Shown: positions 22,621 through 36,624 of the stretch, piece by piece
How the letters are laid out: the number at the start of each line of letters is the position of its first letter
How positions within the stretch are numbered: the stretch's first letter is position 1
DNA from: Bacteroidota bacterium
GTDB lineage: Bacteria > Bacteroidota > Bacteroidia > UBA7662
Reading direction: 5' to 3'
DNA: 53,036 nucleotides
Assembly (NCBI GenBank): GCA_005799065.1
Contig: SYHW01000025.1
Span: 1-53,036, forward strand
The notes under the pieces: generated by a model
Database searches by the model: none
The model's input: the letters and a program-made list of their open reading frames with translations, nothing else
Told to the model about the DNA's origin: nothing
Program-made: the position numbers and the translations under genes

Positions 22621-24693
22621 TTAACGTAAGGCCTCCAAGCGGTTCAGGATATCGTTGGCAGCGTCAGTTACCCGTGTGCCCGGACCAAATACCGCGCAAA
22701 CACCGGCCTCCAGAAGCAGCGGAATGTCATTAGGTGGGATCACGCCCCCTGCAACCACCAATATATCGGGACGTCCCAATTCGGCCAATGCAGCAATGAG
22801 CTCAGGGAGTAGGGTGAGGTGACCGGCCGCCAAGGTAGAAGCGCCCACTACGTGCACATCGTTGTCTACCGCTTGTCGAGCCGTTTCCATCGGCGTCTGA
22901 AACAAAGGGCCAACGTCGACATCAAATCCAAGATCGGCAAAAGAAGTGGCGATGACATGGGCCCCACGGTCGTGACCATCTTGTCCCATTTTCGCCACCA
23001 TGATGCGGGGGCGTCGGCCGGTCGACTCGGCGAACCCGGCAGCGCGCTGTCGGGCCGCCTCAAAATCTTGATCCTGTTTCATTTCTCTCGCATATACGCC
23101 GCCAATCGATTTGATCTCGGCCTTGTATCGACCAAATACCTGTTCCAGGGCAGCGGATATTTCCCCCAATGTGGCCCGAGCCTTTGCGGCTTCCACCGTT
23201 AATTCGAGGAGATTGCCTGGTCGCTCGCCCGAAGCACATGCCGCGAGTGCAGACAGGTTGTCGGCCACATGTTGGGCATCGCGTACGTTCTTCACCGCCT
23301 CAAGGCGCTCTACCTGCTGACGACGCACACGGGTGTTGTCGACCTGTAAAACATCGAGTTGCGTGGGTCTGCCCGATGAAAATCGGTTAACGCCCACAAT
23401 AATATCTGCACCCCGATCGATTCGGGCTTGTTTGGCTGCGGCCGCTTCCTCAATTCTCATTTTGGGAATGCCTGTAGCAATCGCCGCCGCCATTCCACCG
23501 AGCTCTTCAATTTCTGCTATGTGCTTACGCGCCTGATCGATGAGCTGCGTTGTAATTTGTTCGATTACCGCTGATCCACCCCAGGGATCCACCACATCGC
23601 AAATGCCCGTTTCGTGCTGGAGGTACAGCTGGGTGTTCCGGGCAATGCGTGCCGAGAAATCCGTTGGTAGTGCTATGGCTTCATCCAGGGCATTGGTATG
23701 CAAACTCTGTGTATGGCCTAAGGCAGCTGCCAAGGCTTCTACGCAGGTTCGGGCTACATTATTGTAGGGGTCCTGTGCAGTAAGGCTCCAGCCCGATGTT
23801 TGGCAATGCGTGCGCAACATGCCCGAGCGCGGATTTTGGGGCTGGAAGGCAGAGACTAAATCCCACCATAACCAGCGGCCTGCCCTCAATTTCGCTATTT
23901 CGGTGAGGTGATCCATTCCGATGGCCCAGAAAAATGATAGCCGCGGCGCAAACGCATCGATATCCAATCCGGCCGCGATGCCGGTTCGAATATACTCTAG
24001 TCCATCGCATAAGGTATAAGCCAACTCCAAATCGGCGGGCGCACCGGCCTCGTGCATATGATAGCCACTAATGCTGATGCTGTTGAAGCGGGGCATATGG
24101 CGGGCGGTGTAGGCGAAAATATCGCCAATGATGCGCATTGATGGCCCAGGCGGGTAGATATACGTATTGCGCACCATGAATTCCTTGAGAATGTCGTTTT
24201 GTATGGTGCCACTCAGTTGTTCGGGTCGTACCCCTTGTTCGAGACCAGCCACGATATAAAAGGCCATGATAGGCAATACGGCTCCATTCATGGTCATGCT
24301 CACCGACATCTCCTCCAGGGGGATGCGGTCAAACAGGCGTTTCATATCTTCCACCGTGTCTATGGCCACCCCAGCCTTGCCGACATCGCCCCGCACACGT
24401 TCGTGATCCGAATCGTAGCCCCTGTGGGTAGCCAAATCAAAAGCCACCGACAGGCCTTTTTGTCCGGCAGCCAGGTTGCGCAAATAGAAGGCATTCGACT
24501 CTTCAGCCGTTGAAAACCCAGCATATTGCCTAATCGTCCACGGATTTTTGAGGTACATACTGGCATAGGGCCCTCGAAGATAAGGGGGTGCTCCAGCTAT
24601 TGCCTGGCTGAAAACATCCGGATTTTTTTTCGTTTCCGAATTCGATGGTTCCTGAAACGTAAAATGCTTTGGATTAGGGAAGAACGGATTCAT
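22621..24693 (-). CDS. scpA: Methylmalonyl-CoA mutase, catalytic B12-binding subunit
   Basis: [39 protein letters not shown] and B12 motif GQDGHDRG. Confidence 0.96.
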
Positions 24694-26063
24694 GATGCAG
24701 ATGGGTTCATTGGGTTGAAGCCATCGATTCTGTAGCGGTCAACCCCTACCCGAATGCGCCTACCGGAGTTGCGCATTTCCTGTTCGAGCGCCTTTCCTTG
24801 CAGACACCATTCGTTAAGAACACTTCGCAAGGCTGTTGCATTCCACGTATTGTCTGGTGTACACAGCGCAACTAATTCACCAAAAATAGACCAAGCGCGT
24901 TCACCGAACGACCGACTCAAATGTTCTATGTAGCCGCTACCTGCACCGGCATCTAAGGGCAGGCGTGGAAACGCCTCGTGCCGAAGGATCATCTGCATTT
25001 GAAGCGACAATTCATCCGCAAAATAATCACCATTGTCCTGATTTTGGGGGTCAAAAGGGGGAAGGGACAGTGCTGTGCATCCCCCAAGCACCGAAGAAAC
25101 ACCCATGGTGGTGAGTCTCAGCAAATTGGTATGAGGATCTTCTGACGGTAAACATTCTTTAGGGATGCGCACAAGAATTTGGGGTTCAAATCTAAAGTTG
25201 CTCCCCGCATCATTCGGTTCGCTAAAAAGCGACGCCACACGATCGATGCCCGCTCTCAGGGCCCTGAGACGAGCCAGCTCATTAAAAAATTCCGTGGTAC
25301 ATCCCACAGAAAGGTAAAGAGGAAGTCCTGGTTTGGAATACCCGCTGTCCTTCGATGTTTGATGGGCATGAATCGAAAGTCTGCGATACACGCACAGCCA
25401 ACTGAGTGCCAGTTCCTGAGGGGCCGAAAGACCCCACGCACGCCAATCGGCTGTATCTACACCAAGCGGATTGAAATTCGGTACATCAAAGGCAAACTGA
25501 TCTTCAATCTTCGTCCATTGCCGCTCATCCATGACCAATAAATCAACTGCATCGCAGAGAAGGGCACCTTGAATATGTTGGGGGTCGATGTGTCCCTGAC
25601 GCATCCAGTATGCAAATCCATCAAAAAGAACCCCGGCATTCACTCCCCGGAAGAACAAAGGCGCGAATTGGGGTAAAATTCCATGTAATGACTCTGCTAA
25701 GTGCTCAGGCGATAGCCCAGACCCATCCAATAATAGGGCCTCGCCACCGTGTTGCAACGCATGAAGAGCGCGGGTATTGATATCCGAGGGCGAATGACCG
25801 CCAACCGGGGCAACCGCAAGCCAAGCTGGAGCCCAGGCTGAAGGGTCGGAATCTTCCCCAAACGGCAAGAGGGGTTTTGCGTAGGCAAACGGTCCATCGC
25901 TGGTATAATGGGGTGCGCGCGCAATACCATCCGAATCCGTTTTGATCAACGATTCGGGATGATCGAGCTTCAGTTCCTTTGACGCCCTTTGCAGCCATTC
26001 GAACCAAAGATTCGGTTGATCAGTGGTCTGTTTCGTATGGGGATGTGGTGCGGATGCCGACAT
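24690..26063 (-). CDS. mutA: Methylmalonyl-CoA mutase small (non-catalytic) subunit, divergent
   Basis: [23 protein letters not shown]...[15 protein letters not shown] and VGVDRY motifs; 4-bp overlap with the large subunit; no C-terminal B12 domain. Confidence 0.8.
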
Positions 26064-26066
26064 AGC

Positions 26067-26867
26067 TTAGAACATTTTTTCAAGCCAATCGCCCACCCAA
26101 TAGCTCACCGCCGCGGCAGCACCGCCCAAAAACAAAGTTTCGGTCATGCCTTTGAACGCACTGCTTCTCGTAACAAAGGTCTTTAACCAGCCAATCAGCA
26201 AAAAGGCAATGGCGGTCATGCTCGAAGAGATGACGAAAAGAGGGGCCGATGAAGGGTTGAGGTAGTCGAAAACATAAACGGTAATCGGCACCAAGCCGAT
26301 CAACAGAAAGCTGAAGAAGGTAACGGTACCCATGGCCAAAGGGGATCGGGTTTCTTGCATCATCTCGAGCTCCTCTTTCATCATCACATCCACCCAACGA
26401 TCCTTGTCTGCCGTAATAGTGGTCACAATTTGCTCCAATAATTCGCCTTCAAAGCCTTTATTGCGGTAGATCTCACGGATTTCATCCCGTTCCTTTTCGG
26501 GTAGGTTGTCGACCTCCCAATATTCGATCTGCTTGTGTTTCTCGTAGTTCTGTTGCTCGCTTTTGTGACTGAGGTAGGAACCCACGCCCATTGCGAAACC
26601 ATCGGCCAGTAAATTGGCAAAGCCCAGGATGATAATAACCTGCGAACTCAATCCGGCACCCGTTGCACCGGCCACTACTGCAAAAGTGGTGACGCTTCCG
26701 TCGATCCCGCCATACACGAACTCGCCCAAATAGCGGTTTAGTCCACCCAGCCAAAACTGACCTTCTTTGTGCATTTGGTCTTCTTGGTGGCTGTTCATAG
26801 GGTTATTGGTTGAAGCATTGGTTGTTGGATCAACGAGCTTGCGCAAGCATTTAACGGTCTCGTGCAA
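26067..26867 (-). CDS. VIT1/CCC1-family metal (Fe/Mn) transporter
   Basis: [32 protein letters not shown] and acidic E...ERDEIREIY...MMKEEL motifs. Probable start at ATG 26798; -7 box at 26882-26889. Confidence 0.92.
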
Positions 26868-26922
26868 AAAGTGTCAAACCACAAAAATACGGATGACGCG
26901 CAAGAATTCGGTTAGATATCGA

Positions 26923-28134
26923 TTAATGAGCGTCGGCATGTTCACTTTCAGCCGAAGCATGGGCGTCGAGCCGACCAGCACCTTTTGTTACCCAAATAGT
27001 TCCTGCTTCGATCCCTTCACCCAATGCATCAAACGGACCCGACATAAAGGCACCCTTTAACGCAACCCTTCGGTATCGACCGGGGGCTAATTTTTGAAAG
27101 GCAACCCAACCTGTCTCGGTTTGTAGGAGTGCGCCCGAAGACACCGATAGTCGGTTGTTTGTTCTGAGCGGTATTCGAGCCAAAACCGACATACCGGGAC
27201 GCAAAATGGGGTCTTGTTCGCGATCGATATGACCGTGCACCCGAACGGTTCTGCGTTCCGGGTTCAGTTCTCGACCAATGCTAAAGATTTCAGCATCAAA
27301 AACCTGGGTGGGCACTCGGGTCAAACTAAAGGTGAAGGTCATTTTGGGCTGAACCTGCGGTAGGTGTGCCTCAGGTAAATCAAGCTCAACATGCATATGG
27401 CTCAAGTCCAAAACCCCGACCAATTCCCCCGTACGTTCTGTAAATTGGCCAGGAAATGCGTTCACAGTGGTCACATACCCAGAAAAGGGTGACTTAACCG
27501 GAAATTCTCCCGAAATCTGTTTGGCATCAATGCGCGTGGGGTCGATATGGAGTCGCTGCAATTGGGCCGCCAAAGATGCCCTTTGGGCCAGGCTAGACCG
27601 ATAATCGGCACGCGTTTGCTCCAAAGTGCGTCGATCGGTTGCCTGCTTTTGTGCGAGGATCTCCTGCCGCTCTGTCTCGGCTTCGAGAAAGGAGATGCGG
27701 GCAGAATTTTCAAGGTATGAACGCTGCAACTCCACCGCATCTGGATGCTCGAGCACCATAAGAACCTGTCCCTGGCTCACTTTTTCCCCTTCTTTTACCC
27801 GTACACTTTTCACAAAGGCAGGAATCGGGGCATGCAATCGGGCATAATGCTGGGGCGGCACTTCCAATAAGCCGTTGAGCACAAGTTCATCGCCCACTGC
27901 GTTGAGACGTGCTGTATCTGTCGATAAATCAGCCAGCCGTTCCTGCTCAGATGTCAGCCAAATTTCGCCGGCGGGCTGAGCGCCATCTTGTGTAGTGCCT
28001 ATTTTTTTAGGGTCATTGGCTTGATCTGCTTCTCCATCTTGTTGGCTGCTACAAGCCGTAAACGAGAGCAAAAGGTACAATAGAAAAAATTCGGCGCGTG
28101 GTCGAAAGGAAGGAATAGGATAATTGTGAATCAT
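26923..28134 (-). CDS. RND heavy-metal efflux periplasmic adaptor (CzcB/CusB type)
   Basis: Lipobox FTAC; lipoyl halves V+EGEKV..GQVL and SPFSGYV; LRPGM; His/acidic C-terminal tail. Confidence 0.9.
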   Translation of the reverse strand: MIHNYPIPSFRPRAEFFLLYLLLSFTACSSQQDGEADQANDPKKIGTTQDGAQPAGEIWLTSEQERLADLSTDTARLNAVGDELVLNGLLEVPPQHYARLHAPIPAFVKSVRVKEGEKVSQGQVLMVLEHPDAVELQRSYLENSARISFLEAETERQEILAQKQATDRRTLEQTRADYRSSLAQRASLAAQLQRLHIDPTRIDAKQISGEFPVKSPFSGYVTTVNAFPGQFTERTGELVGVLDLSHMHVELDLPEAHLPQVQPKMTFTFSLTRVPTQVFDAEIFSIGRELNPERRTVRVHGHIDREQDPILRPGMSVLARIPLRTNNRLSVSSGALLQTETGWVAFQKLAPGRYRRVALKGAFMSGPFDALGEGIEAGTIWVTKGAGRLDAHASAESEHADAH

Positions 28135-28158
28135 ACTGATGGTCGTTGATCAAGATTA

Positions 28159-29208
28159 TTAATCGGCATAGGTTAGGGCAGCCAGGCGATGAACAGAAAG
28201 ATGAAGCTGGTATTCGTTGTAGAGGTTGTCGAGGCGCGATTGATGAATGTTTTCCATAGTCTGGGCATACTCGTAGTAGGTTAAACGTCCCTGAGCCAGC
28301 ATAAAATTGGCTTGTTCAAGTAGTTCGTTTAAGCGCGGATCAATCTCATTGATTTGTTTACGAACCCGCTCCGCATACATGCCACTCTCTTGTCGGGCCT
28401 GATGTTCCTCATGACTCATATAGAGGGCCTCGCGGCTCAATTTGAGGTCGTTTCGCATACGCATCAAACGAACGGCCTCTACAGAGGAAGCAGCCCGCAA
28501 GGGCACAAGAGGCAAGCTCAGTTGCACCATAATACCACGGAATCCGGCCACCTGTTCGAGCGACTGGTTAAAGGCCCCCAGGCTAATTTCTGGTCCAAAC
28601 GATGCTTTTTGGACGTTTTCGGCCTGAAGGTCGAGCGCACGTTGTGCAGCCCATATCCTCCTCATGGGGTGGGAACGGGCAGCACCCGGCTTGCTTATTT
28701 CTCCCACCGGCCACCCGGGTGATTCAGACAAAGTATCTAGGGCACACAACTTGCATAATGTTCGGATAGCCTGTTCGTGCTCCAGTCGAGCCCTGGGCAG
28801 CTGCCAGTTGAGGGCATCGAGCTGCTGTTGCGATAACAGAGCCGACAAGCGGTCGGCGGTTCCTACATCCGTTCGCATTTGCACAACACGATCGGCTTGC
28901 TGCCACACCTGTGCATGCCGGCCCAATAAACGGAGACGTTCTCCAAAATAGGCCACTGCGCTATAGGCATCCCGTATCTCATGGGTCAATTGAAGGCGGA
29001 TCTCCTCCCTCCGTGCCTTTGCCAATTCCACCTCGAGTCGACCATACTTCAAGCCGGCACCGAGAGCGAACGGAGCGCCTAGCGGTTGCAGAAATGATAC
29101 ATTTCGGTCTACCAGCGCATAGTTGATTTGCCCGCGGTCGAAGTTGAATTGGGTTTTACCCGGAAACCACAGTTGTGCCATTTGTGCTTCAGCTTCCTGA
29201 ATGGCCAA
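28159..29208 (-). CDS. TolC/CzcC outer-membrane factor domain; in-frame continuation of czcA past one TAG
   Basis: Coiled-coil OEP-like repeats. The same frame is open back to 29283 (DVWRQKRDQWIEQAVRAHPRLQEANL) and is the czcA frame. No signal peptide of its own. Confidence 0.8.
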   Translation of the reverse strand: MAIQEAEAQMAQLWFPGKTQFNFDRGQINYALVDRNVSFLQPLGAPFALGAGLKYGRLEVELAKARREEIRLQLTHEIRDAYSAVAYFGERLRLLGRHAQVWQQADRVVQMRTDVGTADRLSALLSQQQLDALNWQLPRARLEHEQAIRTLCKLCALDTLSESPGWPVGEISKPGAARSHPMRRIWAAQRALDLQAENVQKASFGPEISLGAFNQSLEQVAGFRGIMVQLSLPLVPLRAASSVEAVRLMRMRNDLKLSREALYMSHEEHQARQESGMYAERVRKQINEIDPRLNELLEQANFMLAQGRLTYYEYAQTMENIHQSRLDNLYNEYQLHLSVHRLAALTYAD

Positions 29209-29283
29209 ATTGGCCTCTTGAAGCCGGGGGTGTGCACGAACCGCTTGTTCGATCCATTGGTCTCTTTTTTGCCGCCAAACGTC

Positions 29284-32200
29284 CTAATCGGGTCGCCCTG
29301 TATCAACGATTTGATCGTTGGATGCTTGTTGTGCCACGGCAGAAGGGGATCCAACGAGTCCACACCCAAAAATGAACAAACACAATACAAACACTGGAGC
29401 ATGCCCCGTAGAAACCTGATTCGAAGCATCCATGCTGGGGGTTGATTTTCTGCGTTCAAACAAAATATACAAGGCGGGGAGTACCAGCAGGGTCAGCAGG
29501 GTTGACGTTATCAATCCACCCACCACTACGGTAGCCAGGGGTTGTTGCACTTCAGCCCCTGCTGAGGTACTCAGTGCCATAGGCACGAAACCCAATGCGG
29601 CTACCAGGGCAGTCATGAGAACAGGTCTCAAGCGGTCCAAACATCCCTCCACCACCCGGCCAGTGAGATTACCCACCTGATCCGTGTTGCCCTTTTCTTC
29701 ATCACGCATTTGGTTGAGGTGCCCCACCAAAACAAGTCCGTTGAGCACGGCCACACCAAACAGTGCAATAAAACCAATGGCAGCGGAAATGCTAAAGGGA
29801 AGATCGCGAAAATAGAGCGCTAAAATGCCTCCCAGCGCGCTGAGGGGCACAGCGGTTAGGATCATGAGCGCGTGTCGCCACGTCCGTATACTCACGCGCA
29901 GCAACAAAGCAATCAACAATAGCGTCACCGGTACAGCCCACGACAACCGCAGCCGTGCGTCGTTCAGCTGTTTATACTGACCTTCGTATTGTACTGAATA
30001 GCCAGGAGGAAGTTTAAGCTGCTCTTTAATCTTTTGCTGTATATCGTTCACCAATCCCTCTAAATCACGTCCCCGAACATTGATCAGTACGTTCAGGTAG
30101 CGTTGGGTATTGTCGCGACTCACCAAACTCGGTCCTTGTTCCAGCGTAAATTGGCCTACAGAACTCAGGGGAATCAGTTGCCCTGCAGAATTTTTCACCA
30201 TCAAAGCCGATACACGTTCCGGTTGATGGCGGATCGAGTCGTTGAGTCGTACCACCACTTCATGCCGAGCATCGCCCTCAAAAACCACGCCGGCCGAACC
30301 ACCGGCAAAAGCCAGCTCCAATTCGCGGTTAACCGTGGCGACATCCAAGCCATGCCATGCCAATTGGGTTCGGTCCCAACGCACCATAAGCTGCGGAAGC
30401 CCTTCGGTGGCCTGAACCAACACATCACCCGCACCAGGAACATTCCTGCACAATTCCGCTGCTTGTTCGCCCAGTGATGCCAAAACCCCCAGCTCTGAAC
30501 CGTATATACGCACCGCCAAGTCACTTTTCACACCCGTGAGCAATTCGTTGAAGCGCAACTGAATGGGCTGGGTGAATTCAAATCCAACACCCGGAATTTC
30601 TTCGAGTTTTTCCTTCATGCGTTCCACCAGTTCTTCCCGACTGTTCGCGCTGGTCCAATCCTCCCGCGGTTTGAGGAGGATCATCACATCCGAATCCTCT
30701 ATAGCCATTGGATCGGTTGGTATTTCGGCTGTACCGATTTTGCTTACTACACCCCGAACCTCAGGAAAATGCGTCAACAAAATCCGCTCCGCAACCGTAC
30801 TGGCCCGGATGCTCTCGCCCAAATTACTGCCAGGTCGCACCGTCATCTGCATGGCTAAATCACCCTCCTCCAGGGTAGGCACAAAAACACTCCCAAGACG
30901 AGAAAAGAGCCAGAATCCGAACAAAAGGGCGACAAAAGACATTGCCAGAGTCGTTTTGGGGTTGCGCAAAGCACTGAAAAGGGCAGGGCGATAGATGCGC
31001 CGGGCTCCTGACATCAGAGAATCACTCCACCGGGCCGTTCGGTCACTGCTTTTTGTTGCCAGAGCAAAGGAGGCCATCACGGGTACATAGGTCAACGACA
31101 GCAGCAAAGCCCCAAATAATGCCATTCCAACCGTTATGGCCATGGGTTGAAACATTTTGCCCTCAACACCACCTAAGGCCAAAATGGGAAGATAGACCGA
31201 CATGATGATGATTTCACCGAATGCGGCCGACTTCCGAATGCTGCGTGCAGCACCCAAAGCGAGTGTGTCGGCTTGTGCCGAAGGAATAGCTCCTCCGCTG
31301 CCATTCTTCTGAAACACATGAACAATGCGTTCAACAATGATCACAGCGCCATCCACGACCAAGCCAAAATCGATGGCGCCCAAACTCATGAGATTGGCGG
31401 AAATGCCCAGCACACGCATAATCCCCAACGCAAACAGCAATGAAAGGGGGATGACCGAGGCCACCACCAATCCAGCACGTAGGCTGCCCATGAACAGCAC
31501 CAAAACAAACACCACAATCAGTCCGCCTTCGAGTAGGTTGTTGCGCACCGTCCGCAAAACCCGCCCGAGCAGGTCCGAGCGATCCAAATACGGTACAATC
31601 CGAACACCTTTCGGCAACATCGTCTGCACTTCTTCCATTCGCTTGTGCACGGTCTCCAAGGTTTGATATGCATTCGACCCCTTCAGCATCAACACAATGC
31701 CCCCAACCGCCTCACCACGCCCATCACGCGTCATCGCCCCAAAGCGCACTGCTTGTCCATCCACAATCTTGGCCACCTGTCCCAGGAGCACAGGTCTTTC
31801 ATCGCGATAGGCCACCACCGATTGCTCCAACGCGCGCGGTGTCGTGGCAAGGCCTTCCGCCCGAATATACACCGCATCAGACCCACGTTCGAGGTAACTG
31901 CCACCCGCGTTGCCATGATTGCGCACAACCGCTTCCCAAACCTCACCCACCGTCAGGTTGAGGCCCCTCAGCGCAGCGTCGTCGATGGCAACCACATGCT
32001 GTTTTACACCCCCCCCAAAGCTACTCACTTCCACTACACCCTCCATCCCTGCGAGTCGTCTTTTCACCAGCCAATCTTGTATGCTTCGCAACTTCCGGAC
32101 GTCATATGCTTGCTCAAAGCCAGGTTCTAACTCCAAAGTATATTGGTATATCTCACCCAATCCGGTGGTCATGGGCATCATTGTGGGTTTGCCATGCCAT

Positions 32201-32568
32201 GTGCCCCCCTCTTGCTGCAAGCTGTTCAGCTGTTCCGAAACCAATTGCCGGGCCTGTAGGTGGGGTACATCCTCCCTAAAAATGAGGGTCACCACACTGA
32301 GGCCGAAGCGCGACAAACTGCGAATATTCTCCACGCCGGGTAAATTGGCCATAGCCTGTTCTACAGGAATGGTCAGGTAGCGTTCAACCTCCTGAGGGGC
32401 CAAGGCCGGACTGTGGGTAATGACCTGAATCTGGTTGTTGGTGATGTCGGGAACAGCATCAAAAGGCAGCTGCCAGGCCGAATACAGGCCCCACACAATC
32501 AGGGCTGCAATCCCTGCAGCCACTGCCATTTTATTGCGCATGCTTTGGTTAATGAGCCAATCAAACAT
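29284..32568 (-). CDS. czcA: CzcA/CusA-family heavy-metal RND transporter (Czc-type, divalent cations)
   Basis: DAVPDITNNQ, ANLMSLGAIDFGLVVDGAVIIVE, AEIPTDPM, QPIQLRFNEL, RLRPVLMT and GAEVQQPLATVVVGG motifs; start at ATG 32568 (MFDWLI). The CusA Met-triad context is not seen. Confidence 0.93.
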   Translation of the reverse strand: MFDWLINQSMRNKMAVAAGIAALIVWGLYSAWQLPFDAVPDITNNQIQVITHSPALAPQEVERYLTIPVEQAMANLPGVENIRSLSRFGLSVVTLIFREDVPHLQARQLVSEQLNSLQQEGGTWHGKPTMMPMTTGLGEIYQYTLELEPGFEQAYDVRKLRSIQDWLVKRRLAGMEGVVEVSSFGGGVKQHVVAIDDAALRGLNLTVGEVWEAVVRNHGNAGGSYLERGSDAVYIRAEGLATTPRALEQSVVAYRDERPVLLGQVAKIVDGQAVRFGAMTRDGRGEAVGGIVLMLKGSNAYQTLETVHKRMEEVQTMLPKGVRIVPYLDRSDLLGRVLRTVRNNLLEGGLIVVFVLVLFMGSLRAGLVVASVIPLSLLFALGIMRVLGISANLMSLGAIDFGLVVDGAVIIVERIVHVFQKNGSGGAIPSAQADTLALGAARSIRKSAAFGEIIIMSVYLPILALGGVEGKMFQPMAITVGMALFGALLLSLTYVPVMASFALATKSSDRTARWSDSLMSGARRIYRPALFSALRNPKTTLAMSFVALLFGFWLFSRLGSVFVPTLEEGDLAMQMTVRPGSNLGESIRASTVAERILLTHFPEVRGVVSKIGTAEIPTDPMAIEDSDVMILLKPREDWTSANSREELVERMKEKLEEIPGVGFEFTQPIQLRFNELLTGVKSDLAVRIYGSELGVLASLGEQAAELCRNVPGAGDVLVQATEGLPQLMVRWDRTQLAWHGLDVATVNRELELAFAGGSAGVVFEGDARHEVVVRLNDSIRHQPERVSALMVKNSAGQLIPLSSVGQFTLEQGPSLVSRDNTQRYLNVLINVRGRDLEGLVNDIQQKIKEQLKLPPGYSVQYEGQYKQLNDARLRLSWAVPVTLLLIALLLRVSIRTWRHALMILTAVPLSALGGILALYFRDLPFSISAAIGFIALFGVAVLNGLVLVGHLNQMRDEEKGNTDQVGNLTGRVVEGCLDRLRPVLMTALVAALGFVPMALSTSAGAEVQQPLATVVVGGLITSTLLTLLVLPALYILFERRKSTPSMDASNQVSTGHAPVFVLCLFIFGCGLVGSPSAVAQQASNDQIVDTGRPD

Positions 32569-32699
32569 AAAGATCAGATTAGGGTAAAGGGTGATGCAAT
32601 TCAAGCAAGAGCGGACTCCTTAAATGGCGATTCATGAACCCGAAGCTCATAGCACCTACACGAAAAGCGGAGACTTCTCACCAAAAAAAGAGTCGATCG

Positions 32700-32739
32700 G
32701 TGGTCAATCAGGCCACCAGGAAGTGGTCAATCAGGCCAC
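32700..32739. repeat. 17-bp direct repeat (period 23) spanning the uORF stop codon
   Basis: GTGGTCAATCAGGCCAC at 32700-32716 and 32723-32739; each copy is also self-complementary at its ends (GTGG...CCAC). Confidence 0.95.
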
Positions 32740-33156
32740 TGGCGGCGCTCGGCCGGCCCATGAATTTACTGAAGCACCGCAAAGAACAAAGATGGGCTCA
32801 GGCAAGCCAATTCGCCGATTCGGTGGAGGAACCCAGCGGAGTTGCGGCAAGTATTCGACCGACCACATGCCAAGCCACAGGTCCACACCATGGTTGTTGC
32901 GGTTTACCTTACAATTTACCTTACAAGGTATTACGGATTCAGCAAAATGCACCGCTTCCGGTGTGTGATACCATTCCAGGTGATGCACGCCGAGATCCAG
33001 AGACAGTCCACCCACGAGCTTCGCCCATGCTTCAGTTGTTTCCTGATCACAAAAATGTTCCGCATTCGAATGCTGTTCATGGTGGTGGGGCACCATCTGA
33101 TGCACCATCAAGAACAGAAGAGCTGCAGTCAACCAAAAGGAACGAACAAGGCGCAT
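32731..33156 (-). CDS. His-rich membrane-targeted upstream ORF with C-terminal RAPP motif (candidate metal-sensing arrest peptide)
   Basis: Hydrophobic N-terminus, VPHHHEQH, DLGVHHLEWYH, CKVNC and terminal GRAPPVA*. Has its own promoter and directly precedes czcA. Confidence 0.78.
   Translation of the reverse strand: MRLVRSFWLTAALLFLMVHQMVPHHHEQHSNAEHFCDQETTEAWAKLVGGLSLDLGVHHLEWYHTPEAVHFAESVIPCKVNCKVNRNNHGVDLWLGMWSVEYLPQLRWVPPPNRRIGLPEPIFVLCGASVNSWAGRAPPVA
32903..32926. repeat. 12-bp tandem duplication in the uORF
   Basis: TTTACCTTACAA twice; encodes CKVN-CKVN on the minus strand. Confidence 0.9.
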
Positions 33157-33176
33157 GTCAGGGTAAAAGCAAGTTT

Positions 33177-33208
33177 CAAAAATACTTGATTAATTTCAAG
33201 AGACCAAA
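33177..33208 (-). promoter_or_regulatory. Complete Bacteroidota promoter TTTG-N20-TATTTTTG upstream of uORF-czc
   Basis: -33 TTTG at 33205-33208 and -7 at 33177-33184, 20 nt upstream of ATG 33156. The spacer contains CTTGA-N6-TCAAG. Confidence 0.72.
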
Positions 33209-33217
33209 ACACCCCAT

Positions 33218-34354
33218 TCAAGGTACACGCACCGCTTGAAGTGCACAGTGGTAGGCTTCCTCATAAAGCGGGAGGATTCGGTGGATATCGAAACGTTCCG
33301 CCTGCTTCCGTGCAGCCAGGCGGAATGCTTGCAGTAGTGCATCATCATGAAGCAAGCGCATGGCGGCTTGAGCCATGCCCTGAACATCATCAGCATCGGT
33401 CAGGAAGCCCGTCACGCCATCCACATTCACTTCGGGTAGCCCCCCAGACCGGCTACTCACCACCGGCACGCCACAGGCTAGCGCCTCCAAAGCGGCTAGT
33501 CCGAAACTTTCAGTCTCAGAAGGCAGGAGGAATAAGTCACCCGCAGATAGGATCTCCTCAACGGCCTCCTGCTTGCCTAAAAAGCGGACATCGGAAGCAA
33601 TTCCGAGCTCGCGACACAATTGCTCGCACCGCGGCCGTTCCGGACCGTCGCCCACCAAGAGCAGGCATGCCGATATTTTTTCCCTGATCAAAGCAAAGAC
33701 ACGAATAACCGAGTCAACCCTTTTCACCTTACGAAAATTCGAGATGTGAATAAGCCGTTTCTGATTTTCACCCGCCAAGGCTAAGGTAAAACGGCATGGA
33801 TTTCGTTGCTTGAACCGCTCCAAATCAATAAAATTGGGGATCACCTGTATGGGCTTTTCCACGTGAAAATGTTCCAGGGTATCGCGACGCAGAGACTCCG
33901 AAACAGCCGTCACCCCATCACTCAGGTTTATAGCGTGACTCACCACCGGTTCATAGCCCGGGTCTTTACCCACAAGCGTCACATCGGTGCCGTGGAGGGT
34001 GGTAACCACCGCCAATCGGATTCCCTCGCGTTGGAGGATGTCGCGCGCTAGAAGGGCCGCGGTGGCATGGGGAATGGCATAATGCACATGCACCAATTCA
34101 ATGCCTTCGTGCCGCACCACATCCACCAATTTACCAGTCAAAGCCAATAAATACGGACTATGTTCGAAGACAGGGTAGTGCAGCATGGCGACCTCATGGT
34201 AATGAACACGCTCATTCAATAAATCGAGGCGTGCGGGTTGTGACGAACTCACAAAATGTACTTCATGACCCTTTTGGGCCAAGCCCAAGCCCAATTCGGT
34301 GGCCACCACGCCACTGCCTCCATAGGTCGGGTAACAAACCACAGCGATTTTCAT
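33218..34354 (-). CDS. bshA: N-acetyl-alpha-D-glucosaminyl L-malate synthase (bacillithiol biosynthesis)
   Basis: CYPTYGGSGVVATELG, HVHYAIPHA, TTLHGTD, HISNFRKVKR and ESFGLAALEA motifs. Confidence 0.95.
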   Translation of the reverse strand: MKIAVVCYPTYGGSGVVATELGLGLAQKGHEVHFVSSSQPARLDLLNERVHYHEVAMLHYPVFEHSPYLLALTGKLVDVVRHEGIELVHVHYAIPHATAALLARDILQREGIRLAVVTTLHGTDVTLVGKDPGYEPVVSHAINLSDGVTAVSESLRRDTLEHFHVEKPIQVIPNFIDLERFKQRNPCRFTLALAGENQKRLIHISNFRKVKRVDSVIRVFALIREKISACLLLVGDGPERPRCEQLCRELGIASDVRFLGKQEAVEEILSAGDLFLLPSETESFGLAALEALACGVPVVSSRSGGLPEVNVDGVTGFLTDADDVQGMAQAAMRLLHDDALLQAFRLAARKQAERFDIHRILPLYEEAYHCALQAVRVP

Positions 34355-34388
34355 GCAGGTGTCGGTTGATGCGAGCAGATGGGTTTAT

Positions 34389-34787
34389 TCAATCTCGTGT
34401 TTTCACGGCCCGCTGTGCTCCATCGGGCGCCCAAGCCGTAATAGGGCAGCTCCAGGCTTGTGCTGGCTCTGAAAGCCAACTCTTGGTTTGTTTCCATACG
34501 TCCCTAAACAACGAAGAGGTGCGGTAAGTTTCGAGGTCCTCCGGCCGATCCCATCCACTGATGGTAAAAAATGTGTCGCCGCAACGCAACAAATAAACAA
34601 AACGGCATCCCATATGACCGGCAATGCGCCCTTTATTTTCTTCGAAGAGCAACACAAAACGATCGATGCAGTCCGTACGAAAGGTCATGCGCACTACGCG
34701 CACAAAAGCCTGATCTGTGCCAGAGCAAGACGGTGCCATTTGCCCGAGAGCCTGCTTCAGAGAATTCAAGGGGATCAACGGCTCCAT
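34389..34787 (-). CDS. ABM-family (putative quinol monooxygenase) protein
   Basis: FVRVVRMTF...GC...FFTISGW...LETYRTSSLF..VW...K..AWS pattern. Start uncertain. Confidence 0.8.
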   Translation of the reverse strand: MEPLIPLNSLKQALGQMAPSCSGTDQAFVRVVRMTFRTDCIDRFVLLFEENKGRIAGHMGCRFVYLLRCGDTFFTISGWDRPEDLETYRTSSLFRDVWKQTKSWLSEPAQAWSCPITAWAPDGAQRAVKTRD

Positions 34788-35581
34788 TTTTCAATAAATA
34801 ACGCATCATCAACCTTCATTCCCAAGAGTGAAGCAGCCTTTCCGCAACGAATACCCAAATGCAGTAGATTGTCGAAGCCGAAATAGCAGGCCACTGCTCC
34901 AGGCTCTACCTCATCTACACTACTCGACAGGGAGCGCACGGTCTCCGCATCGCTGTAGGTTTTTTTAAGCAAAATTTGCCATGCATCCCCCGGTTCTAAA
35001 AACCGCTTAAACAAAGCTTGGTCAACATTGGTGATGAGGTTCTCGTAGCTGTCTACATGCACCACCTGAGCCTGAAGAATATGATCGCGTACAAAAGGGG
35101 TGGGCACCAAATGCATGAACACATCGCTGCTGGGTTTGCCCAAACCTTCCTGCACATCCGAAGCATCACGAAGCCCCGCTAAACAAGGCAGAACCTCAGT
35201 TAACATTTTAAAAGAACTACCACTCACGCTACCGCCCTCCGGCATCCTGTAGAAGGTGCTGGGCACCCCTAGGGTAATGAGGCTTGCAACGCCGTTGTCG
35301 GGAACCACAAAATAATGCCCTTCAAAAATAAAAAACAGATGGTCTGATGCTGTAAAACGCGATGAAGAAACATCCAATAGGTGAAGCGACCCGGGCGGAA
35401 AAAAGCGAAACGAAGAACGCAAAACATAGGCGGCCTGTCGTATGTCATATTTTCGGATATTGTGGCTCACCTCGGCGATCGTCAACTGTGGGAACACATA
35501 CTTCAATTGTGCATTCAATACCGATGCAAAGGCATCTGAGTTGCCGTAGTCGGTCGTGAGGGTGATACATGAAAACTCCAT
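34775..35581 (-). CDS. DUF62 / SAM hydrolase-halogenase family protein
   Basis: ITLTTDYG, FPPGSLHL, VVPDNG, VDSYENLITN and AASLLG motifs. Start moved to ATG 35581 because a -7 box (TAGTTTTG) sits at 35602-35609. Confidence 0.87.
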   Translation of the reverse strand: MEFSCITLTTDYGNSDAFASVLNAQLKYVFPQLTIAEVSHNIRKYDIRQAAYVLRSSFRFFPPGSLHLLDVSSSRFTASDHLFFIFEGHYFVVPDNGVASLITLGVPSTFYRMPEGGSVSGSSFKMLTEVLPCLAGLRDASDVQEGLGKPSSDVFMHLVPTPFVRDHILQAQVVHVDSYENLITNVDQALFKRFLEPGDAWQILLKKTYSDAETVRSLSSSVDEVEPGAVACYFGFDNLLHLGIRCGKAASLLGMKVDDALFIEKWSR

Positions 35582-35625
35582 GGATGATTCTTCCTGCGCC
35601 ACAAAACTATCAATAATCGCGGTCG

Positions 35626-36624
35626 TTGACTGATCATATTTTTCAATTGGGCGAAATTTCGCCCTTGTCCTTTTTTGGGACCGATAACCTGCGGCTCAAC
35701 AGCTTGCGCTCTGCCTTTCCGCGATTGCGCATTACAGCACGTGGGGATGCGTTGGTGGTAGCCGGCGATGATGAGGAAATCGATCGTTTTCAGGAGCAAT
35801 TTGAACGCGTCCTGTCCGCATTGTCGCGCCGGGGTGAGCTCAGTCAACGCGAGTTCGCCCAATTGTTGTTGTCTGCCGACCCCATTCCCGCCATACAGAC
35901 CCATTCAGATTCCGTGTTGTTGCACGGCCCCAATGGCTTGGTGGTGCGGGCCCGTACCCCCAACCAATTGCGCATGGTGCAGTTGTCGTCGCGCAATGAC
36001 ATCCTCTTCGCTGTCGGACCGGCGGGTTCAGGCAAGACCTACACGGCTGTCGCGCTGGCAGTACGGGCGCTCAAAGACAAAGAGGTTCGAAAGATCATCC
36101 TCACCCGCCCGGCCGTTGAGGCCGGTGAGAGTTTGGGATTTTTACCCGGCGATTTGCGCGAAAAAATCGATCCCTACTTGCGGCCGCTCTATGATGCACT
36201 GGGCGATATGATACCGGCGCACCGTCTCGAGAAATACCTGGAAGAACAAATCATCGAAGTGGCCCCTTTGGCCTTTATGCGGGGTCGAACCCTCGATAAA
36301 GCATTTGTGATCCTCGATGAGGCCCAGAACTGCACGGAGATGCAGATCAAAATGTTTCTCACACGGATGGGTCCATCGGCCAAATTCATCATCACCGGTG
36401 ATCTCACCCAGATTGACCTGCCCCCCAGGCAACGGTCGGGTTTGCCCCAGGCCTTGCACTTATTGGAGGGTGTAAAGGGTATAGCCCAAGTGTTCTTAAG
36501 TGCCGATGATGTCGTCAGGCATCCGTTGGTTCGTACCATTGTTGAGGCATATGGACGGCATGATGAAGCACGGCAAAGGCGAGCGGCAGATCGGGAACAG
36601 GGTATGGATCGTGCTGAAACCTAA
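35626..36624 (+). CDS. phoH: PhoH-family ATPase
   Basis: GPAGSGKT, TRPAVEAGE.LGFLPG, PLAFMRGRT, LDEAQN, TGDLTQIDLP and DVVRHPLV motifs. Confidence 0.94.
   Translation: MTDHIFQLGEISPLSFFGTDNLRLNSLRSAFPRLRITARGDALVVAGDDEEIDRFQEQFERVLSALSRRGELSQREFAQLLLSADPIPAIQTHSDSVLLHGPNGLVVRARTPNQLRMVQLSSRNDILFAVGPAGSGKTYTAVALAVRALKDKEVRKIILTRPAVEAGESLGFLPGDLREKIDPYLRPLYDALGDMIPAHRLEKYLEEQIIEVAPLAFMRGRTLDKAFVILDEAQNCTEMQIKMFLTRMGPSAKFIITGDLTQIDLPPRQRSGLPQALHLLEGVKGIAQVFLSADDVVRHPLVRTIVEAYGRHDEARQRRAADREQGMDRAET

Follow-up and report, generated by a model that had tools for sequence, protein, structure and literature searches.

A candidate metal-sensing arrest leader peptide with histidine motifs upstream of a heavy-metal efflux operon in Bacteroidota

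Here, we analyzed a stretch of 53,036 nucleotides (nt) of DNA (the window) from a Bacteroidota bacterium (GenBank assembly GCA_005799065.1, contig SYHW01000025.1, positions 1 to 53,036), which carries on its minus strand a gene for a His-rich protein of 141 amino acids (aa), P0001 (32731-33156), upstream of the heavy-metal efflux gene czcA. Based on its sequence, its relatives and its genomic context, this upstream open reading frame (uORF) very probably encodes a regulatory leader peptide that belongs to the RAPP arrest class and has a His-based sensor. With a probability that we put at about 0.62, it would act in cis as a metal-sensing arrest leader peptide of a heavy-metal resistance-nodulation-division (RND) efflux operon comprising the uORF, czcA and an outer-membrane efflux protein (OEP) gene, an adaptor gene and a VIT1-family gene. 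An earlier reading of the window, made without database searches (the sequence-only reading), had proposed a metal-sensing arrest regulator at this position; its conservation test and its genomic context were borne out, while a signature that included Cys residues and a PPP run, and the novelty claimed for an inverted regulatory logic, were not.

Results

The uORF belongs to a large family with three conserved modules

There is no start codon upstream of the ATG of the uORF within its open frame. From the N terminus, the protein consists of MRLVRS, approximately 13 uncharged residues, HQMVPHHHEQH, DLGVHHLEWYH some 30 residues further on, a featureless stretch of 74 residues, and GRAPPVA followed by the stop codon. 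Counted by script, the protein contains 11 His (positions 19, 24, 25, 26, 29, 34, 58, 59, 64, 70 and 89) and 4 Cys (positions 36, 78, 82 and 126); PPP is at residues 110-112, and RAPP is at residues 136-139 of 141 (nt 32740-32751), followed by V, A and the stop. Thus, all elements that the sequence-only reading had listed, i.e. an ORF of 141 aa with 11 His, 4 Cys, PPP, VPHHHEQH, DLGVHHLEWYH and RAPP two codons before the stop, are present. The features of the uORF, with conservation given for the 83 representatives described below, are as follows.

32731-33156, minus strand: uORF (leader-peptide gene, P0001), 141 aa plus stop, ATG start
33103-33156, minus strand: N-terminal export signal or signal-anchor, residues 1-18; positive n-region plus ~13 uncharged residues, judged by composition
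33076-33102, minus strand: His motif 1, H-x3-P-H-x-H-E, residues 19-27 (HQMVPHHHE); H19, H24 and H26 invariant, P23 at least 90%
32974-32997, minus strand: His motif 2, D-L-G-x-x-H-L-E, residues 54-61; G56, H59 and L60 at least 90%
32752-32973, minus strand: linker, residues 62-135; sequence not conserved
32740-32751, minus strand: RAPP codons, residues 136-139, presumed arrest point; R136 and P139 invariant, P138 at least 90%
32731-32739, minus strand: final two codons (V, A) and TGA stop

The protein matched no family in Pfam or NCBIfam. Among 61 related genomes that were searched, 13 more have a homologous open frame, with lengths of 127-152 aa, and a profile of 14 sequences was used with HMMER against 1.84 billion representative proteins clustered at 50% identity. 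Of these representatives, 681 matched the profile at E≤0.001, and 67 of them did so at E≤1e-10. In the databases, every copy carries the annotation 'hypothetical protein' and comes from a Bacteroidota metagenome-assembled genome (MAG), and a comparison of 83 members with NCBIfam gave scattered chance matches only. A word-based protein search returned two relatives with the single protein and 19 with the alignment, all unnamed or 'hypothetical'; a pattern-based locus search returned five loci in genome contigs and six in metagenome contigs, mostly duplicates, the pattern being too narrow for the wider family. One same-genus homologue (L023, genome G002) is from a MAG labeled Sphingomonadales, and its genus neighbors are labeled Bacteroidetes; this label is probably a binning or labeling error.

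Aligned with each other, 83 representatives with 15-50% identity to the window protein have a mean column identity of 24%. Five columns (H19, H24, H26, R136 and P139) are invariant, and five more (P23, G56, H59, L60 and P138) are conserved in at least 90% of the sequences. Conservation is limited to three modules, i.e. a positive hydrophobic N terminus, the two motifs H-x3-P-H-x-H and G-x-x-H-L-E, and R-(A/G)-P-P near the stop. The C-terminal motif lies 1-8 residues before the end in 154 of 165 relatives, with a tail of two residues in 61 and of three residues in 58 of these 154; among the 11 relatives that deviate, nine carry RPPP, RSPP, RGSP or WAPP and two are without any such end. Since R[AG]PP within eight residues of the end also occurs in 2 of the 6458 mechanical ORFs of 60-300 aa in this genome, a lone case is unremarkable, and it is the family-wide conservation that makes the motif non-random.

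The spacing of the modules is conserved as well. His motif 1 and His motif 2 are separated by 28-32 residues (10th to 90th percentile), and the linker from His motif 2 to RxPP has a median length of 57 residues (10th to 90th percentile 53-62, range 47-74) and is conserved in length and not in sequence; at 74 residues, the linker of the window protein is the longest in the family. At the N terminus, 98% of 142 members have an n-region net charge of at least +1, followed by an uncharged run with a median of 13 residues (10th to 90th percentile 12-15). The residue before H19 is small (G/A/S/T) in 77 of the 142 members, leaving cleavage uncertain; a general cleavage by signal peptidase before H19, which would make this residue a possible N-terminal His ligand, was rejected because position -1 is Leu in 50 of the 142.

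There is no conserved Cys column among the 83 representatives, 40 of 166 relatives are without any Cys, and PPP is replaced by HPP in a 93%-identical relative. The 4 Cys and the PPP run are therefore lineage-specific and drop out of the signature. By contrast, the comparative test that the sequence-only reading had proposed on ORFs upstream of Bacteroidota czcA genes came out in its favor, with HxH, GxxHLE and terminal R(A/G)PP conserved in the 83 representatives and the 165 relatives.

We considered that the uORF might be non-functional, i.e. an ORF that arose by chance in a GC-rich spacer or the remains of a decaying gene there, which would fit the lack of a Pfam or NCBIfam match, the 'hypothetical protein' annotation of all database copies, and the 10 non-synonymous as opposed to 5 synonymous differences between the window uORF and its 93%-identical relative. 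However, the profile matches 681 representative clusters at E≤0.001, every homologous locus has an uninterrupted frame, and both modules and context are conserved. Of the three ORFs overlapping the uORF on the opposite strand, none has a Pfam match, and all are disrupted in a same-genus relative. The differences from the 93%-identical relative, synonymous ones included, all lie outside the three conserved modules; of the 10 non-synonymous ones, seven are in the linker and three between the His motifs. In total, the family conservation effectively refutes a chance ORF, and we conclude from sequence comparison that the uORF is a real gene of a large uncharacterized Bacteroidota family.

The uORF heads heavy-metal efflux genes

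In all 21 distinct loci, the uORF heads heavy-metal RND efflux genes, on the same strand and directly upstream. A czcA homologue is the next gene in all 14 loci of the relatives search as well as in five more distant loci (L026-L030); at L025 the order is uORF, His-rich adaptor and RND gene, and at L031 the uORF is followed by an OEP gene. The spacer between the uORF and czcA is 162-232 nt long in the genus of the window and 38-84 nt outside it. In the window, it is 162 nt as the sequence-only reading had stated, with the czcA ATG at 32568; an alternative in-frame TTG lies ahead at 32604, and ATG was taken as the start because homologues align from the residue 1 that it encodes. The family is patchily distributed, being present in 7 of 401 genomes evenly sampled from the phylum and in 15 of 34 genomes of the order of the window, where it covers 4 of 10 genera and where 26 of the 34 genomes have a czcA-like gene (E≤1e-150). 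Of the properties that characterize RAPP-class peptides, the family thus has the terminal R-A/G-P-P motif, the same-strand position directly upstream in 21/21 loci and, by composition in 142 members, the N-terminal localization signal.

The constant linkage to pump genes, the conserved His and acidic ligands and the export signal would equally suit an ordinary structural or accessory efflux protein, i.e. a periplasmic or anchored metal chaperone or buffer like CusF, CzcE or CzcI that acts in trans and uses R(A/G)PP for turnover or docking. CzcI, encoded upstream of czcCBA in czcNICBA of Cupriavidus, is a small CutF-like protein without a C-terminal proline motif (10.1101/2022.11.11.516240), and some czcA-like genes in the order of the window do without the uORF, both of which would fit such a function. 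However, a linker of 47-74 residues, approximately half of the protein, is conserved in length only, and the most conserved feature is a four-residue motif 2-3 residues from the stop that is otherwise avoided in proteomes because it arrests translation. Moreover, the two tail residues after PP vary (VA, RA, SC, RS, VG, QG, AV, KS), which argues against a docking or degradation tag, and CruR and CutF, which have the same architecture, are undetectable as mature proteins. We therefore regard an accessory protein as unlikely.

It is also conceivable that the uORF encodes an arrest leader that does not sense metal and, instead, monitors Sec/YidC capacity or provides plain translational coupling for a gene without a Shine-Dalgarno sequence, with the His residues being incidental or membrane-related. 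Most characterized RAPP-type peptides monitor the protein-localization machinery, and the stop/start complementarity present in some lineages (below) would also serve termination-reinitiation coupling. Against this, the only sequence conserved in the exported part consists of two motifs at fixed spacing that hold four His, all invariant or nearly so, flanked by Glu. In addition, the downstream genes are heavy-metal pumps and not sec or yidC in 21/21 loci, and relatives in the family DUF6769 have extra inserts rich in Cys and His and lie upstream of a His-rich adaptor. An arrest leader of this kind is, in our judgment, even less probable than an accessory protein.

DUF6769 is the nearest named family

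The nearest named family is DUF6769 (PF20558). The window protein did not match the DUF6769 model; among the 83 family members, 14 matched at E≤1 with a best value of 1.3e-4, and the one match inspected (P0028) scored 18 bits against a gathering cut-off of 27 and was restricted to residues 6-29. In a profile comparison with a true DUF6769 member, hhalign gave a probability of 88% over 31 N-terminal columns, and in a feature search of the ESM Atlas, DUF6769 clusters were nearest with scores of 0.97 and 0.96. Both groups share an N-terminal hydrophobic segment with H-x3-P-H-H-H and a C-terminal RAPP end; they differ in that DUF6769 members have a Cys/His-rich middle and lack G-x-x-H-L-E, which the window family has. 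Judged by these sequence features, DUF6769 and the window family look like branches of one uncharacterized Bacteroidota superfamily, in which the ligand region between the shared N-terminal and C-terminal parts varies. Thus, the suggestion of a different, His-based family stands insofar as DUF2946, the family of CruR, gave no match (below) and the His columns are invariant, with the qualification that the family is a distant relative of DUF6769.

Two genes of true DUF6769 members were identified; their products end in GLRAPPVA (L069:1483-1917, plus strand) and RAPPTIV (L032, minus strand, 146 aa), and they precede a gene for a His-rich RND adaptor and a gene for a TonB-dependent receptor, respectively. 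Since both end in RAPP and have such neighbors, DUF6769 is probably an arrest-type leader-peptide family too. No function has been published for DUF6769, the name of which turns up in one paper in an unrelated context.

A candidate promoter precedes the uORF

Bacteroidota promoters have a -7 element with the consensus TAnnTTTG, and a sequence that fits this consensus, TATTTTTG, lies 28 nt before the uORF ATG. The features at the two ends of the uORF are as follows.

33177-33184, minus strand: TATTTTTG, candidate Bacteroidota-type -7 promoter element
32700-32739, minus strand: tandem direct repeat, 2 x 17 nt (32700-32716 and 32723-32739), spaced 23 nt

Of 14 loci, 7 have a TAnnTTTG motif no more than 30 nt away from the start of the uORF. 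A scan for sigma-70 promoters, which is uninformative for Bacteroidota, returned 0 promoters; the promoter of its own that had been ascribed to the uORF thus has a candidate -7 element in its favor and gains nothing from the scan. At four loci (L006, L010, L012 and L015), only 4-6 nt separate the end of TAnnTTTG from the start codon of the uORF, and three of these loci have GTG as start codon; the uORF mRNAs there may have little or no leader, or translation may in fact begin elsewhere.

Contigs from four metatranscriptome runs of three studies cover the uORF, the spacer and the 5' part of czcA, and single contigs span both the uORF stop and the czcA start, which is compatible with one uORF-czcA transcript. 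Contig depth over the uORF was 2-8 times that over czcA in all four runs; because several strain contigs were summed and such sums are unfit for ranking depth, this drop was not used as a sign of attenuation.

The final two codons of the uORF and its stop fall within the first copy of the 17-nt repeat. Another genome of the same genus, G001 (L002), has three copies, and G003 has a dispersed pair; loose ends of RNA and DNA contigs at 32739 and 32683 suggest that the copy number varies between strains. In addition, contigs from two of the four RNA-library runs show one extra base in a T-run at 32682 in the spacer.

The uORF end and the czcA start are complementary in a part of the loci

Complementarity between the end of the uORF and the start of czcA was assessed in 23 loci, which include close relatives and represent about ten lineages. 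With segments from the RxPP codons to 6 nt beyond the stop and from -30 to +6 of the czcA start (test 1), 9 of the 23 loci beat 500 dinucleotide shuffles (p≤0.05), and with segments comprising the last two codons, the stop and the following 12 nt, and -25 to +6 of the czcA start (test 2), 8 of the 23 did so. Significant complementarity was thus detected in 12/23 loci as the union of both tests, a number that is inflated by the use of two segment definitions. In four loci of one genus in the family of the window (L006, L010, L015 and L061), positions -2 to +1 of czcA are the reverse complement of the uORF stop in 4/4 cases, and involve three different stops, i.e. the stop/start pairs are TGA/TCA, TAA/TTA, TAG/CTA and TAA/TTA. 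This compensatory sequence pattern would link uORF termination to czcA initiation in this genus.

When a stalled ribosome was modeled in 15 loci by forcing its footprint to be unpaired, the predicted accessibility of the czcA start region increased by ~0.1 or more in six, i.e. L008, L010, L011, L015, L026 and L014 (0.09). RNAalifold recovered two internal hairpins in four loci of one genus and did not recover the closing stop/start helix, which is missed because its arms are out of register in the alignment; the helix rests on folds of individual sequences and on the duplex statistics. We consider unmasking of the kind described for CutF plausible in many relatives.

In the genus of the window, folding of four spacers with and without a stalled ribosome revealed no common switch or alternative fold. 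A terminator scan returned two terminator-like sites, both inside the uORF and no more than shuffles give. Two further candidates were discarded, i.e. a match to Gut-1 in an Rfam scan of 32400-33300, which scored 22 bits against a cut-off of 50 and is on the other strand, and a 23-codon ORF inside the window spacer, which is conserved in a near-identical relative only.

The efflux operon and neighboring genes

The remaining features of the operon and its surroundings are as follows.

32569-32730, minus strand: spacer between the uORF and czcA, 162 nt, predicted to be structured
29284-32568, minus strand: czcA, heavy-metal efflux RND permease of the CusA/CzcA family (ACR_tran, E=1.5e-255; TIGR00914, 1052 bits against a cut-off of 701)
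28159-29208, minus strand: outer-membrane efflux protein (OEP/TolC-like; PF02321), frame shared with czcA
26923-28134, minus strand: periplasmic adaptor (membrane fusion protein; HlyD_D23, TIGR01730)
26067-26867, minus strand: VIT1-family metal transporter (PF01988, E=6.5e-65), last gene of the same-strand cluster
33218-34354, minus strand: bshA, bacillithiol synthesis (TIGR03999, 533 bits)

The czcA gene stops at an in-frame TAG (29284-29286), and the OEP/TolC-like ORF carries on in the same frame (28159-29283). The frame that includes the czcA match stays open over 1436-1486 aa in many relatives, e.g. over 1486 aa in the 95%-identical genome G001, which indicates, from sequence, a fused gene for RND permease and outer-membrane factor; the TAG in the window could be a nonsense codon or a sequencing error, or could possibly be read through.

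The stop of bshA is 62 nt ahead of the uORF start. The efflux operon is thus flanked upstream by a thiol-buffer gene, and a second metal exporter, of the Fe/Mn transporter family VIT1, ends the cluster. A Pfam scan of the nine neighboring ORFs (24690-36624) detected no transcription factor.

Discussion

A model for metal sensing by the nascent chain

In the model that we favor for a metal-sensing arrest leader, the uORF and czcA would be transcribed together from the promoter before the uORF, as suggested by the motif ahead of the uORF, by the lack of another such motif and by RNA-library contigs tiling both genes. The positive hydrophobic N terminus would, as its sequence suggests, direct the nascent chain to the Sec translocon, and the ribosome would stall at R-A-P-P with Pro-Pro in the P and A sites, as in ApdA, ApdP and CruR; the identity of the motif and its invariance in the family argue for this stall. 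The ribosome tunnel holds ~30-40 residues and the path through the translocon ~20. At the stall, tunnel and translocon would thus hold most of the 74-residue linker (~57 residues in the family), and, given the conserved linker length, with 53-62 residues in most members, the His motifs would be just outside the membrane as the ribosome reaches RxPP. Having just emerged on the periplasmic side, these motifs (H19, H24, H26 and H59, with E27 and E61) could then bind a divalent metal.

Metal occupancy would change the duration of the stall and, thereby, set czcA expression. A ribosome covers ~15 nt of mRNA downstream of its P site; with two residues after PP, the mRNA covered by the stalled ribosome would extend to about the stop codon. 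In many relatives with spacers of 38-84 nt, a helix would have its 5' arm under the stalled ribosome and its 3' arm at or shortly ahead of the czcA start, so that the stall would open the initiation region in a manner similar to CutF; the complementarity statistics in 12/23 loci support this helix. In the genus of the window, where no such helix is predicted, coupling, if any, would more probably act on transcript elongation or termination as in CruR, an analogy that we consider weak.

For the direction of the response, our guess, by analogy to CutF and on physiological grounds, is that metal would prolong the stall and induce the pump. CzcA of the window has the pattern DFG..DGA..VE in transmembrane segment 4, which we take to indicate the divalent-metal class, and by this pattern the metal sensed is probably divalent, i.e. 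Zn, Co, Cd or Ni.

Points that weigh against a metal-sensing arrest leader

Several observations weigh against this model. Firstly, the 10 non-synonymous as opposed to 5 synonymous differences from the 93%-identical relative indicate weak constraint outside the motifs. Secondly, a czcA-like gene (E≤1e-150) is present and a uORF match absent in 11 of the 34 genomes from the order, and the leader is therefore dispensable for such pumps. Thirdly, RNA-library contigs cannot prove a single transcript, since such libraries can contain DNA. Fourthly, the papers cited show no RAPP arrest on Bacteroidota ribosomes.

The remaining points concern the coupling to czcA. With a generous union of two segment definitions, 11 of the 23 loci pass neither duplex test, i.e. 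those of the window genus (L001-L004 and L045) as well as L005, L006, L007, L012, L027 and L049. The window locus has duplex z-scores of 2.09 (test 1) and 0.68 (test 2), and there is no detectable pairing between uORF end and czcA start at this locus nor in its genus. Moreover, predicted start-site accessibility in the window decreases from 0.61 to 0.47 with the modeled stalled ribosome, and the 162-nt spacer contains no terminator-like site and no Rfam element. An argument based on a Rho site in the window spacer was abandoned, the C/G ratio of 1.17 not being distinctive.

Implications

Metal-sensing arrest peptides are recent, with two experimental examples, both of which use Cys ligands, sense copper and come from Proteobacteria. 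If a metal-sensing arrest leader is the correct explanation, the arrest-peptide principle would have arisen more than once, since the family is unrelated in sequence to CruR and CutF, uses His ligands and serves CzcA-type exporters, and the principle would extend to other metals. It would also give a function to several hundred 'hypothetical protein' clusters and probably also to DUF6769, and provide a natural system for stalled-ribosome control of initiation in a phylum without Shine-Dalgarno pairing. Such a regulatory element is now overlooked by genome annotation and by prediction of metal resistance.

In its widest form, the reading would be that this is the first arrest-peptide family to sense a divalent non-copper metal (Zn/Co/Cd/Ni) in the periplasm via His ligands; that, over a sizeable portion of Bacteroidota, it acts as the chief local regulator of CzcA-type pumps, a role that two-component or extracytoplasmic function sigma factor systems have in Proteobacteria; that it works by stalling and unmasking without Shine-Dalgarno sequences, via pairing between the uORF stop region and the czcA start; and that DUF6769 is its sister family. 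We put this combination forward tentatively, and would be somewhat surprised if all of its parts held together.

Comparison with known arrest peptides

RAPP and RGPP arrest ribosomes and are depleted from proteomes, including those of Bacteroidota, and they are enriched at the C termini of small exported proteins encoded upstream of sec, TonB-receptor, YcnI, PCuAC, PepSY, DsbA and thioredoxin genes (EMBO J 2025, PMC12992588); RAPP-type arrest is also described by Fujiwara et al. 2024 (PMC10987492). The window uORF resembles the small ORFs of the EMBO J survey and the arrest peptides SecM and ApdA/ApdP in that it encodes a small exported protein with a terminal RAPP/RGPP and lies upstream of a metal-related gene. 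In the main text of that survey, 'efflux', 'RND' and 'czc' occur 0 times.

A catalogue of CutF-like proteins (<150 aa, PP within 15 residues of the end, signal peptide) by Ozturk et al. contains 5,334 proteins (10.1101/2022.11.11.516240, PMC9973294), 19% of which are from Bacteroidota, with neighbors that include OEP, ACR_tran and HlyD_D23; of its 29 clusters, the His-only clusters 14 and 17 neighbor HupE/UreJ and not RND pumps (10.1101/2022.11.11.516240). Literature searches on DUF6769, on CzcI/DUF2946 and on CutF/CruR in Bacteroidota with RND returned no paper describing or testing the window family. The statement that no such system has been characterized in Bacteroidota thus holds as far as tests of the family are concerned, with the reservation that the catalogue may already list it.

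CruR (Bp2923) of Bordetella pertussis has 145 aa; its RAPP is three residues away from the C terminus, CXXC and RAPP are spaced by 45, a value that is conserved within 1-2 residues, and the spacer to the next gene is 162 bp. Copper relieves the arrest, and Rho then terminates transcription before the importer gene (PMC9426467). CruR is found mainly in Proteobacteria. Its arrest occurs with two Pro codons in the P and A sites (PMC12992588). What the sequence-only reading had cited on CruR and RAPP arrest was accurate. CruR and the window protein are alike in size (145 and 141 aa), predicted export and C-terminal RAPP (three and two residues from the end), and each is encoded by the first gene of a metal-homeostasis operon with a 162-nt spacer. 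The spacing from ligand to stall is conserved in both, at 45 residues in CruR and a median of 57 in the window family, so that the property is analogous and the value differs. By contrast, CruR uses CXXC and copper and the window family uses His without a conserved Cys; moreover, the target of CruR is an importer, a TonB-dependent transporter, and the arrest is relieved by copper, whereas the target in the window is an exporter. DUF2946 (PF11162), to which CruR and CutF belong, did not match the window protein at E≤10 nor any of the 83 members at E≤1, was above cut-off in only one of 151 Bacteroidia genomes, in a frame of 341 aa, and no conserved CXXC/CxxxC copper motif is present in the 83 representatives. 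On this sequence evidence, the window family is not a member of DUF2946.

In CutF of Rhodobacter capsulatus, periplasmic copper prolongs a stall at a C-terminal PPP, and the ribosome melts a stem-loop over the ribosome-binding site of cutO (10.1101/2022.11.11.516240; 10.1101/2025.02.05.636593). The proposal that the logic would be inverted relative to CruR, with metal inducing an exporter, is therefore not new, because induction of a detoxification gene by metal is how CutF-cutO works. CutF has the same architecture as the window family, i.e. a nascent sensor that is targeted to Sec and carries a proline stalling motif at its C terminus, and the melting of its stem-loop over the cutO start resembles the helices in the short-spacer relatives of the window uORF; it differs in having CxxxC and a PPP that elongation factor P can rescue, where the window family has His ligands and R(A/G)PP. 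Altogether, the His-ligand family itself is uncharacterized, and it is of a kind that is already known from CruR, CutF and two bioinformatic surveys.

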